Source: a candidate division Zixibacteria bacterium SM23_73_2 (lineage in GTDB: Bacteria > Zixibacteria > MSB-5A5 > SM23-73-2). From it: a stretch of DNA of 12,595 nt. Each line of letters begins with the position of its first letter. Position 1 is the first letter of the stretch. Shown piece by piece: positions 208 through 9,237 of the stretch. Below the pieces are notes generated by a model. That model had not been told where the DNA came from, made no database searches, and saw only the letters and a program-made list of their open reading frames with translations. Made by a program: the position numbers and the translations under genes. The DNA is taken from contig LJUW01000063.1 of NCBI GenBank assembly GCA_001304315.1, positions 1 to 12,595 of the forward strand. The letters run 5' to 3'.

Positions 208-534
208 AAATCCTCCTTTGAAATTGAAATATTAACTACTTGTGAAATTCTGTCTGAATGTTATGCAACAATTAAGAATATGTTGTGGAATCCCCCATCT
301 TATTTTATCGGTTATAAACGGAAAAGGTGAAAGGGCTGTGCAAAAAATTGAAAATTCAATCTTTAATTAATCTTCAACCTAAAGATAGTAATTTTCTTGT
401 TTATAAGATTAGATGCTATTCTGGGAATCTATGTACTTTTTTATAAATTTCACAAAAAAATAGTAAAGGTACAAGGTATCCACCTTTTTATATTAGATAC
501 AGGTAGGTCGGATCTCCAAATCTGACTACAGGAA

Positions 535-585
535 AGTCGATTTTAGAAAATCGATCCAAAGGATCAATCCTTCGGATCGACCTAC
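535..585. repeat. Left copy of a 26-bp direct repeat (AGTCGATTTTAGAAAATCGA + CCTACT), interrupted by a 22-bp hairpin insert (555-576)
   Basis: An exact 20-mer AGTCGATTTTAGAAAATCGA (535-554) recurs at 767-786. The 10-mer TCGACCTACT recurs at 576-585 and 783-792. With 555-576 removed, the two copies are identical over 26 nt. The 20-mer contains the inverted repeat TCGATTTT-AG-AAAATCGA. The insert TCCAAAGGATCAATCCTTCGGATCGA can fold as a nested hairpin (TCGATCC..GGATCGA outside, AGGAT-CAA-TCCT inside), and TCGA is duplicated at its edges. Confidence 0.6.
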
Positions 586-604
586 TATGATATTTTGCTT
601 ACCA

Positions 605-652
605 CGCCAGGTCAGCCTACTCCTGGCCAGGGGGTGACCTGGTGGGCACAAG
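605..652 (+). ncRNA. GC-rich extended hairpin motif, copy A (GCCAGGTCAGCCT ... GCACAAG); candidate structured RNA or REP-like element
   Basis: CCAGGTCA (607-614) pairs perfectly with TGACCTGG (635-642). Inner pairs are CC/GG and CCT-GGCC-AGG. The region is about 70% GC against an AT-rich background. The 13-mer GCCAGGTCAGCCT (606-618) and GCACAAG (646-652) both recur at 8647-8704. A T5 run follows at 656-660. Confidence 0.3.
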
Positions 653-664
653 CTGTTTTTCGTT

Positions 665-694
665 AGTGCAGGAATTGGAATTCCTGCACTTTTT
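665..694 (+). terminator. Rho-independent terminator, plus-strand orientation (AGTGCAGGAATT-GG-AATTCCTGCACT + TTTTT)
   Basis: A perfect 12-bp stem (665-676 / 679-690) is followed directly by T690-T694. The minus-strand complement has no U-tract, so it reads on the plus strand only. Confidence 0.65.
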
Positions 695-695
695 A

Positions 696-726
696 AAACA
701 GGTGGGGGAAATAGATTTCCCCCACC
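696..726 (-). terminator. GC-rich hairpin GGTGGGGGAAA-TAGA-TTTCCCCCACC with a U-tract on the minus strand; convergent partner of the 665-694 terminator
   Basis: An 11-bp perfect stem (701-711 / 716-726) has loop TAGA. On the minus strand it is followed immediately by UGUUUUAAAAA (complement of 690-700). On the plus strand the nearest T-run (737-743) is 10 nt away. Confidence 0.4.
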
Positions 727-766
727 AACTAATAAGTTTTTTTGTTCAAATTTTGAACAGTAATAG

Positions 767-792
767 AGTCGATTTTAGAAAATCGACCTACT
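767..792. repeat. Right, uninterrupted copy of the 26-bp direct repeat (AGTCGATTTTAGAAAATCGACCTACT)
   Basis: Exact match to 535-554 plus 577-585. The arms GTCGATTTT/AAAATCGAC form a 9-bp inverted repeat. It lies 232 bp downstream of the left copy. Confidence 0.6.
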
Positions 793-810
793 GAAATAAT
801 TATTTTTACA

Positions 811-838
811 TTGACATCTCCGTTATAACCCTTATAAT
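811..838 (+). promoter_or_regulatory. Sigma70-type promoter for pspC (TTGACA - 16 nt - TATAAT)
   Basis: TTGACA at 811-816 is followed by a 16-nt spacer and TATAAT at 833-838, about 88 nt upstream of the ATG at 926. The RBS AAGGAG is at 915-920. Confidence 0.55.
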
Positions 839-925
839 AAAATCAAGAAATAATCTTTTCTTGAATCCTTGGCAGGACTTCTTCGTAAAGAGAGTTGAAA
901 AGGAAATAAAAATTAAGGAGCATTT

Positions 926-1309
926 ATGGCTAAAAAACTTTACCGCTCGAAAACAAATTCGATGATCGCCGGGGTTTGCGGTGGATTAGCCGAGTATTTC
1001 GACATCGACCCGACCATAGTTCGGCTGGTTGCGGTGCTTTTGATACTGGCTCAGGGAGTCGGAGCAATAGGCTACATCATAGCCTGGATAATAGTTCCCC
1101 AGAGAAAAGAGGGTGAGGAAGCAGAAGCAGCCGAGGTGAAGGTTGAGGGAACTACCCCCTCTCAAACTGACACCCGACTTCTCCCCGGTCTTATATTGAT
1201 CGTGGTGGGAATCGTCTTCCTTCTGAACAACTTTGTGGCCTGGTTTTCCTTCGGCATATTGTGGCCCCTGGTCCTGGTAGTTCTGGGAATTTATATCCTG
1301 ATAAGGTAA
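926..1309 (+). CDS. pspC: PspC-domain membrane protein (phage-shock protein C family) with a C-terminal LiaF-TM-like hairpin
   Basis: The N-terminus LYRSKTNSMIAGVCGGLAEYFDIDPTIVRLVAVLLIL is the canonical PspC domain. The C-terminus GIVFLLNNFVAWFSFGILWPLVLVVLGIYIL carries the LLNN..W..WP..LGI motif that is shared with the N-terminus of the next gene. RBS AAGGAG is present. Confidence 0.85.
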   Translation: MAKKLYRSKTNSMIAGVCGGLAEYFDIDPTIVRLVAVLLILAQGVGAIGYIIAWIIVPQRKEGEEAEAAEVKVEGTTPSQTDTRLLPGLILIVVGIVFLLNNFVAWFSFGILWPLVLVVLGIYILIR

Positions 1310-8299: not shown

Positions 8300-8557
8300 A
8301 TGCCGGAGGAAGAGGTTGGAAAGATTTCCGATTACTTCGCCAAGATCGGCGTTGCCGCGATCGAGTTAACCGGGACTCTATCCGTTGGCGATACCATTCA
8401 CATCAAAGGTCATACCACCGATTTCACCCAGAATGTGGATTCGATACAGATCGAGCACCAGCAAGTTGAAAAGGCCAATCCCGGCGATTCAATCGGAATC
8501 AAAGTAAAGGACCGGGTAAGGGATAACGATATCGTTTACAAGGTGACCGAGGAGTAA
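8300..8557 (+). CDS. Small standalone beta-barrel protein resembling translation-factor domain II (EF-Tu D2-like)
   Basis: The 85-aa product has VGDTIHIKG...VDSIQIEHQQVEKANPGDSIGIKV...VRDNDIVYKV, which follows the G.V..G....GD...I......V.SI......V..A..GD..G..L pattern of EF-Tu/IF2/SelB domain II barrels. RBS AGGAGG is present. It starts 18 nt after the SPFH gene. Confidence 0.5.
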   Translation: MPEEEVGKISDYFAKIGVAAIELTGTLSVGDTIHIKGHTTDFTQNVDSIQIEHQQVEKANPGDSIGIKVKDRVRDNDIVYKVTEE

Positions 8558-8618
8558 AAGCTTTAGAATTATTGATTTTAACTTTTGTTTACACTCCAAT
8601 GTTATCTAAGTGCCTGAC

Positions 8619-8704
8619 GAGTCACCCGACTCGAGAGGGTTCGTCCGCCAGGTCAGCCTGCCCCAGGTCGGGCAGGCCGGTCAGGGAAACCTGGGGAGCA
8701 CAAG
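8619..8704 (+). ncRNA. Structured GC-rich leader, copy B of the GCCAGGTCAGCCT...GCACAAG motif, upstream of the 8731 CDS
   Basis: It contains hairpins CGAGTC-ACCC-GACTCG (8619-8634), GCCTGCCC-caggtc-GGGCAGGC (8656-8677) and UCAGG-GAAA-CCUGG (8681-8694). It shares the 13-mer GCCAGGTCAGCCT (8647-8659) and GCACAAG (8698-8704) with 606-652. It ends 26 nt before the ATG. Confidence 0.3.
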
Positions 8705-8730
8705 ACCGAAATTGTTAAAAAAGGCTAAAG

Positions 8731-9237
8731 ATGATTAATTTGGATGACCTTTCCCGCAAACAGCTTGTCGGGATGCTGGATGATTTTGCCAAAAACTGGC
8801 TGGCTCACGATGGCTTGTGGTTTCAGGCGGTGGAGAAAAGATACGGGATGGATGTCGCCATCCAGTGCGACAGAGCTGCCTGGGAACACTTTACCGTTAT
8901 CGAGGCGAAAAGGATAATGAAACGCCATAACATACCCCAGGGAAGCGGGCTTTCCGGATTGAAAAAAGCTCTGGGATACCGGCTTTACAGCAGATTGAAC
9001 AAGCAGGAGATAATCGAGGAGAAAGAGAGAAGTTTTGTCTTCAGAATGAACGACTGCCGGGTTCAATCCGCACGCAAGAGAAGGGGACTTCTCGACTTTC
9101 CCTGCAAGCCAGTGGGAATAGTCGAATACAGTGAATTTGCTCGGGCGATCGATCCCAGGATCCGCACCACCTGCCTTAACTGCCCCCCGGATGAGCACCC
9201 GGATGAATTTTACTGCGCCTGGTTGTTTGAGATTTAA
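8731..9237 (+). CDS. Hypothetical cytosolic protein (168 aa) with a C-terminal Cys/His cluster (C..C...C.PPDEHPDEFYC)
   Basis: It has protein-like composition and runs into the bidirectional terminator at 9323-9358. The antisense ORF 8725-9240 is judged a shadow. No confident family assignment is possible. It resembles small DUF proteins with the WLAHDGLWFQAVE motif. Confidence 0.55.
   Translation: MINLDDLSRKQLVGMLDDFAKNWLAHDGLWFQAVEKRYGMDVAIQCDRAAWEHFTVIEAKRIMKRHNIPQGSGLSGLKKALGYRLYSRLNKQEIIEEKERSFVFRMNDCRVQSARKRRGLLDFPCKPVGIVEYSEFARAIDPRIRTTCLNCPPDEHPDEFYCAWLFEI

Follow-up and report, generated by a model that had tools for sequence, protein, structure and literature searches.

Why two strong hairpins should face each other between genes that have no use for a terminator is the question raised by positions 665-690 and 701-726 of the window, the whole 12,595-nt stretch of DNA that was analysed. 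The hairpins lie in the 718-nt intergenic region that separates fbp from a pspC-family gene. These genes point away from each other and, as the first-pass annotation recognised, neither needs the hairpins as terminators. That annotation took the pair to imply at least one unannotated small transcript. We conclude instead that hairpins 665-690 and 701-726 very probably constitute an inverted REP doublet (BIME- or REPIN-like) of a Zixibacterial REP-RAYT system.

Gene context and folds of the hairpin pair

The 5' part of fbp occupies positions 1-207 on the minus strand, based on a Pfam FBPase_3 match (class V FBPase) that was obtained on contig L005 and mapped onto the window, and the gene runs leftwards from 207 as originally described. 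The pspC-family gene (127 aa; gene call at 926-1309, plus strand) is followed by a LiaF/Toast_rack protein, hutU, hutI, lptE, porV, and others. The promoter previously assigned to pspC at 811-838 (plus strand; TTGACA-16-TATAAT) was recovered by a promoter scan as a perfect match (12/12). Homologues of the 301-aa LiaF/Toast_rack protein of the window are annotated as Zixibacteria, which, together with the Zixibacteria labels of MAGs that carry the repeat described below, implies that the window is Zixibacterial. A search for tRNA and tmRNA genes found none. A 50-aa ORF at 642-794 (plus strand) spans the hairpin doublet, and its 3' part has been called as a 42-aa gene on Logan contigs; this ORF is almost certainly repeat sequence and not a gene.

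Folding confirmed two hairpins that face each other. Hairpin H1 (665-690) has the sequence AGTGCAGGAATT-GG-AATTCCTGCACT, hairpin H2 (701-726) has the sequence GGTGGGGGAAAT-AG-ATTTCCCCCACC, and each folds into an 11-bp stem with a 4-nt loop. Predicted energies are -16.3 kcal/mol for H1 on the plus strand (z -5.2) and -20.7 kcal/mol for H2 on the minus strand (z -4.2), where in each case 0 of 200 shuffled sequences folded as well. The perfect 12-bp stem previously ascribed to H1 is indeed a strong stem, but one of 11 bp, because in both hairpins the twelfth "pair" would close a loop of 2 nt, which is not feasible. The T5 run placed after H1 was likewise sustained only in part: a short U-run is present, but T690 is the final base of the stem, and the full stem is followed by UUUU only and then by AAAA. 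A terminator scan listed H2 on the minus strand with the tail TGTTTTAAAA, in agreement with the U-tract claimed for it there. By contrast, H1 is missing from the plus-strand listing, because just four U follow the full stem. The spacer between the units (690-700) reads T5-A4-CA, so that either hairpin is followed, in its own direction, by a short U-run (UUUUA... and UGUUUU). A kissing interaction between an H1 loop UUGGAA and an H2 loop AUCCAA was considered and dropped; the H2 loop of the window is AUAGAU, and the UUGGAA/AUCCAA complementarity arises because two related units stand in inverted orientation.

In the reading of the first-pass annotation, the hairpins are dedicated terminators of hidden transcripts, namely a plus-strand sRNA that ends at about 694 and perhaps carries a hairpin at 605-644, and possibly a minus-strand RNA that starts within 727-810. 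This reading draws on the strength of both stems, each followed by a short U-run, on the listing of H2 by the terminator scan, and on the surrounding stretch of 300 nt, which is highly structured (z -8.5 and -9.9). The hairpin at 605-644 does exist (-26.5 kcal/mol), with a z of only -2.0. However, H1 fails the scan on the strand on which the sRNA would end, and the promoter scan found no promoter-like site on the plus strand in 208-810 and none on the minus strand in 727-810. Therefore, with both flanking genes pointing away and no promoter-like site to feed the hairpins, the pair does not mark the end of a transcription unit, as an intrinsic terminator would. Rfam searches, at the gathering threshold over the whole window and at E <= 10 over 380-930 and 8540-8740, returned only noise (snoRNA and miRNA models at 12-22 bits).

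An oriented repeat family and its transposase genes

The hairpins belong to a repeat that recurs at many other loci. The 24-mer of H1 with its loop left free (GTGCAGGAATNNNNATTCCTGCAC) was matched in 18 metagenome contigs. About nine MAGs supplied 21 stretches that contain GTGCRGGAATTSSAATTCCYGCAC, and several of these MAGs have 2-5 copies on separate contigs. Nearly all of the MAG labels for GTGCRGGAATTSSAATTCCYGCAC are Candidatus Zixiibacteriota, and the rest are two "uncultured Ignavibacteria" and one Chloroflexota bin. When the window was compared with the repeat-bearing loci by BLASTN, only about 656-740 aligned, which comprises H1, the spacer, and H2. The best matches to the window doublet, in L028 (87%) and L016 (84%), keep both the GGTGGGGG-type partner and the T/A-rich spacer, and partner units of this type are found in L016, L028, and L052. 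The first-pass annotation had stated that its proposal would fall if the hairpins proved to be a multi-copy repeat lacking transcription, and the multi-copy part of that statement holds.

The units are oriented, about 30 nt long, and conform, when read in the orientation of the loop, to the consensus (T)nGTGCrGGAATTCCAATTCCyGCAC-nAAC. The inner GGAAT-TCCA-ATTCC and the 3' AAC (A32, A33, and C34 in alignment A1) are at least 90% conserved, whereas the outer stem varies and covaries, with the alternatives GTTCG, GATCG, GGTCG, and GTGGG each accompanied by the matching complement. Changes on both sides were seen in 7 of the 12 stem pairs, and 91.8% of cells in the family alignment are paired, compared to 27-49% when the partners are slid, although this covariation signal is partly circular for the seed units, about half of which were retrieved by a pattern that forces outer-stem pairing. 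The partner units were retrieved through the core motif only and are unaffected by this circularity. Together, these patterns of substitution suggest that the hairpin structure of the family is under selection.

A covariance model (R1) was built for the units and searched against 285 kb of sequence, including the 8-kb stretches fetched around them. It found about 58 oriented units, so that the fetched stretches contain further units beyond the exact 24-mer matches; the units score 45-58 bits on their proper strand and 15-39 bits on the other strand. Unit 1 of the window (658-695, minus strand; stem-loop 665-690) reads AAAAA-GTGCAGGAATTCCAATTCCTGCAC-TAAC on the minus strand and scores 55.2 bits there and 23 bits on the plus strand. 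Unit 2 (696-733, plus strand; stem-loop 701-726) reads GGTGGGGGAAATAGATTTCCCCCACC-AAC, has the variant loop ATAGAT in place of ATCCAA, and scores 42.6 bits on the plus strand, compared to 25 bits on the minus strand. The (-)(+) arrangement of these two units is also that of the family, in which 13 of 15 doublets are so arranged, with spacers of 4-15 nt and AAC flanks that point outwards, and each such doublet joins two different stem types. The spacers of the other doublets are AAAAACT, AGATT, GGGCGT, or TTCAAGTTA; inner T/A runs like those of the window occur only in its closest copies, L016 and L028, and most family members lack the T-run that follows H1.

The units are intergenic, and many of them lie 1-60 nt past a stop codon. 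A crude, ORF-based census gave 43 clusters, 27 of which could be classified by the orientation of their neighbours (21 co-directional, 5 convergent, and 1 divergent); the 16 unclassifiable clusters are at contig edges (9) or overlap a predicted ORF (7). The divergent setting of the window doublet is atypical, with 1 weak case among the 27 classified clusters, and this would allow that something local is transcribed, as the hidden-transcript reading supposes.

In the Ga0214474 contigs (L011:1396-1667, L021:3404-3569, and L027:1043-1394), the unit forms part of a longer repeat (about 170-190 nt), which is 95-97% identical between otherwise unrelated contigs. This suggests a larger composite or MITE-like element in that organism.

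Transposase genes were sought by tblastn with E. coli RayT and IS200 sequences, which served as probes only. The IS200 probe gave nothing significant. The RayT probe led to ORFs that adjoin the hairpins, and these ORFs were validated independently with Pfam and NCBIfam. The ORFs at L044:3420-4040 and L015:2773-3378 score 91.6 and 83.8 bits, respectively, on NF047646 ("REP-associated tyrosine transposase"; cut-off 80), also match Pfam Y1_Tnp, and have family units on both sides. The L044 protein has 51 homologues, whose names include RayT (JGI) and "transposase [Zixibacteria]" (NCBI). Three further RAYTs, P0144, P0131, and P0121, are above the NF047646 cut-off and have R1 units on both sides. 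All five RAYT genes are thus bracketed by family units, and their NF047646 scores range from 81 to 92 bits against the cut-off of 80. The RAYT clusters from the homologue search comprise 1-7 contigs each, where contigs and not copies per genome were counted. The alignment of P0131 to E. coli TnpA-REP (PDB 4ER8) covers the HUH motif and the DYI(Y/H)xNP segment, and the similarity is weak (E 6e-4).

Contigs that carry P0131 come from ERZ27275847, ERZ27275859, 3300028823, and 3300027888, which are the same four samples as those of the window locus. On the basis of this co-occurrence, P0131 is probably the RAYT of the window organism itself. Composition adds little to this assignment: the tetranucleotide correlation of the P0131 contig (L057) with the window (r = 0.855) is the lowest among the Zixibacteria-like loci compared, and the contigs with sister copies of the doublet (L016, L028, and L025) reach 0.93-0.96. 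Directly downstream of P0131, at L057:3676-3968, is a tandem array that repeats about every 85 nt, in which GGTGGCGGAAATCCAAyTCCGyCACCAAC units on the plus strand alternate with GTTGGTTGGGCAATTGGATTTGCCCAACC units on the minus strand; a 97-aa ORF that the gene caller placed over this array is probably spurious. NF047646-class RAYTs of other clades were found at L021:4237-4824 (98.3 bits) and L033:7054-7704 (84.6 bits) and have no unit of this hairpin family immediately beside them. The MAGs that carry them may have more than one REP-RAYT system.

Judging from its homology to E. coli TnpA-REP and the IS200/IS605 enzymes, a RAYT encoded by a single-copy gene (an HUH/Y1 enzyme) would act in trans and would recognise the hairpin and its flank in single-stranded DNA, with its own gene bracketed by the same units. 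Units mobilised in this way would accumulate in intergenic DNA, and the intergenic region of the window is a synteny breakpoint (see below). Accumulation of REP units at a breakpoint would explain a doublet at this site, and a local transcript in need of termination would not be required.

The conservation of the unit could also be attributed to binding. E. coli BIMEs bind IHF and gyrase, and by analogy the hairpins might be protein-binding or structural DNA sites, for a nucleoid protein, for gyrase, or for a regulator of pspC or fbp, that are conserved for this purpose. In agreement with this notion, the inner GGAAT-TCCA-ATTCC is conserved far beyond what a hairpin alone needs. However, the units adjoin unrelated genes across many genomes and hence are not a gene-specific operator, and the combination of a conserved core, an oriented flank, and bracketing of RAYT genes fits recognition by a transposase. 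We therefore consider binding sites of this sort a quite unlikely explanation. The functions proposed for REP sequences have been summarised (PMC3479197).

The palindrome cluster upstream of pspC

The doublet is part of a chain of at least seven hairpins at 503-792 (plus strand, z -8.5; minus strand, z -9.9), which the first-pass annotation missed as a whole. At its left edge (503-529, plus strand) is a GTAG-led palindrome, GTAG-GTCGGATCTCCAAATCTGAC-TAC, that has the classic REP layout of GTAG plus hairpin and coincides with the point at which contig L001 diverges. At its right edge (768-791, minus strand) is an uninterrupted GTAG-led palindrome, GTAG-GTCGATTTTCTAAAATCGAC. A second copy of the latter, at 536-588 (minus strand; GTAGGTCGAT...TTTCTAAAATCGAC), is broken by a 26-nt hairpin, GATCCGAAGGATTGATCCTTTGGATC, that has TCGAT on both its sides, so that this copy equals the one at 768-791 plus the 26-nt insert. 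The hairpin at 605-644 (plus strand; CCAGGTCAGCC...GGTGACCTGG) is flanked by CGCCAGGTCAGCC (5') and CCTGGnGnGCACAAG (3'), and these flanks recur at 8646-8704 around a different G+C-rich hairpin. The recurring elements at 605-652 and 8646-8704 gave no Rfam match. The element at 8646-8704 lies in a 173-nt spacer before a DUF6125 gene and looks like an inserted member of a second repeat family, because the two corresponding genes are only 15 nt apart in L053 and L054. Outside the window, the GTAG-type palindromes and the 605-644 motif are absent from the other fetched loci, except for one loose match in L028. The termini GTAGGTCG ... CGACCTAC and the L001 junction at 503 suggested that the whole of 503-792 might be a single mobile element; this idea is unproven, as homology to other loci covers just about 656-740.

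In relatives, the order pspC-liaF-hutU-hutI-lptE-porV is conserved, and the gene upstream of pspC is different in every relative examined, which makes this locus a synteny breakpoint, with the palindrome cluster located at it. In L050 and L051 (301-aa protein 83% identical), DNA homology begins at window position 787 and runs to 925, and the pspC promoter and the whole 5' UTR (window 811-925; L050:5478-5617) are 78-84% conserved. The pspC leader seems long and conserved for a small membrane-protein operon. The stretch 503-786 is not conserved upstream of pspC in L050 and L051. To the left of 787, two features survive in these loci: the palindrome TTGTTCAAATTTTGAACA (742-759), and a degenerate H2-like hairpin (GGTGGAGATAGACTCCAC). 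In the window, this palindrome separates the REP doublet from the pspC promoter and lies about 50 nt before the -35 box; in L050 and L051 it retains 18 of 19 bases amid unrelated DNA. It may be an operator of the pspC-liaF operon.

The orthologous loci also complete the case against a small-RNA gene, for which neither a promoter of its own, nor conservation at orthologous loci, nor membership in a known family was found. Moreover, a dispersed repeat with a cognate transposase accounts for the hairpins without any transcript. The small transcript that the first-pass annotation regarded as implied is therefore not supported, and we consider it very unlikely indeed that the hairpins are terminators dedicated to hidden RNAs.

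Another possibility concerns the use of the doublet and not its origin. A domesticated REP pair might be kept as a two-way insulator that prevents read-through into the pspC promoter and into the region upstream of fbp, and would be a leftover from an ancestor that had a plus-strand gene upstream; this proposal is compatible with a REP origin and adds present-day selection for termination. Several observations are in line with it. The contig of L052 (301-aa protein 77% identical), which aligns more weakly with the window (L052:1-234; window 702-925; 69% over 237 nt), opens within a canonical H2 unit whose placement with respect to the promoter matches that in the window, and L050 and L051, in which the gene upstream lies on the plus strand, have a degenerate H2-like hairpin there. 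An H2-type unit is therefore old at this site, and might have been retained for a function. In L001, the sequence from 503 onwards is joined to the 3' end of a plus-strand ORF. The near-identical sister copy in L028, which has the same inner T/A runs, is located between convergent genes, where each polymerase first meets a hairpin with its own U-run, such that the doublet could plausibly terminate both. There is also precedent in Pseudomonas: for REP doublets that adjoin A/T runs, co-option for the attenuation or termination of transcription has been proposed (PMC3337134). Against these points stand the shortness of the U-runs, the lack of T-runs in most doublets of the family, and the arrangement in L050 and L051, which are without H1 and have a conventional terminator after the plus-strand upstream gene. 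On balance, retention of the pair as an insulator is a possibility that we regard as somewhat doubtful. With respect to the preferred reading, an inverted REP doublet, the T5A4 spacer found in this lineage would supply each hairpin with its short U-run. The doublet might serve as a portable barrier or insulator that blocks transcription in both directions ahead of the pspC promoter.

The repeat also affects the assembly of this region. The identical pspC locus is present on ten public contigs, and four Logan contigs (k=31) begin exactly at window position 666. The 30-mer at 666-695 is identical in L016 and L028, which diverge from the window at 696, and a shared 30-mer is the k-1 overlap at which a k=31 graph is expected to break; breaks at 666 would be expected if another copy is present in those samples. 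The ENA contig L001 matches the window exactly from 503 onwards and has unrelated DNA to the left (L001:1-62 versus window 441-502). Its left part ends a plus-strand ORF (...IGRKRS*), and the switch occurs at the 5' G of the GTAG-led palindrome. This junction reflects either a rearrangement between strains at the palindrome cluster or a chimeric join through a repeat. A search made in connection with this junction for homologues of the 155-aa upstream gene of L050 found one, which is distant and not from the species of the window.

Relation to known REP systems and significance

The family shares its principal characters with the REP/BIME sequences and RAYTs of E. coli and other Gammaproteobacteria: short, imperfect palindromes that form stem-loops, have an oriented conserved flank, and are extragenic, mostly after stop codons. 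As in E. coli, single units are found alongside inverted pairs that combine two stem types (like the Y and Z REPs of BIMEs) and tandem arrays (L057), and REPs flank the gene of their own NF047646-class tyrosine transposase on both sides. The family differs in its host phylum, the Zixibacteria (FCB group), and in its flank, in that the conserved 3' nAAC, which is 5' GTTn on the other strand, stands where classical REPs have GTAG. It differs further in that conservation is highest in the loop and inner stem (GGAATTCCAATTCC), whereas the outer stem varies.

The predominance of inverted doublets and the A/T runs that adjoin the units are likewise seen in the REPINs of Pseudomonas fluorescens SBW25 (PMC3337134). 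In contrast to those REPINs, the spacers here are 4-15 nt and not 43-71 bp, and the window doublet folds as two separate hairpins instead of one long one, because its units have different outer stems. The doublet also resembles bidirectional intrinsic terminators, in that two G+C-containing stem-loops each have a U-run in their own direction and the L028 copy lies between convergent genes. Unlike such terminators, the window doublet has short U-runs and no transcription unit that ends at it, and it is a member of a repeat family, most members of which are without U-runs, and not a locus-specific structure.

REP-RAYT systems have been studied so far mainly in Gammaproteobacteria. They are well known (PMC3116915, PMC3337134, PMC5581495, PMC3479197), and the literature searched contained no description of a REP-RAYT system in Zixibacteria, for which "palindromic" was mentioned in connection with CRISPR only. 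The family described here extends REP-RAYT systems, with a clear doublet and array architecture, to an uncultured phylum of the FCB group. In annotation, pairs of intergenic hairpins in Zixibacteria should be checked against this REP family before they are read as terminators or sRNAs, and the consensus and covariance model provided here allow units to be counted. The units also break short-read assemblies, as illustrated by contigs that start at 666 of the window locus and inside the H2 unit of L052.

The window doublet is a candidate case of co-option of a REP pair as a two-way terminator. A bolder and, in our view, unlikely extension is that in this Zixibacterial lineage the doublet has acquired an internal T/A run and become a portable bidirectional terminator or insulator that is spread by the RAYT, and that the palindrome clusters mark, and perhaps cause, synteny breakpoints, as would be exemplified by the junction at 503 and by the variable gene that precedes pspC. 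If this were true, a domesticated transposase would distribute transcription punctuation and reshape gene order in an uncultured phylum.
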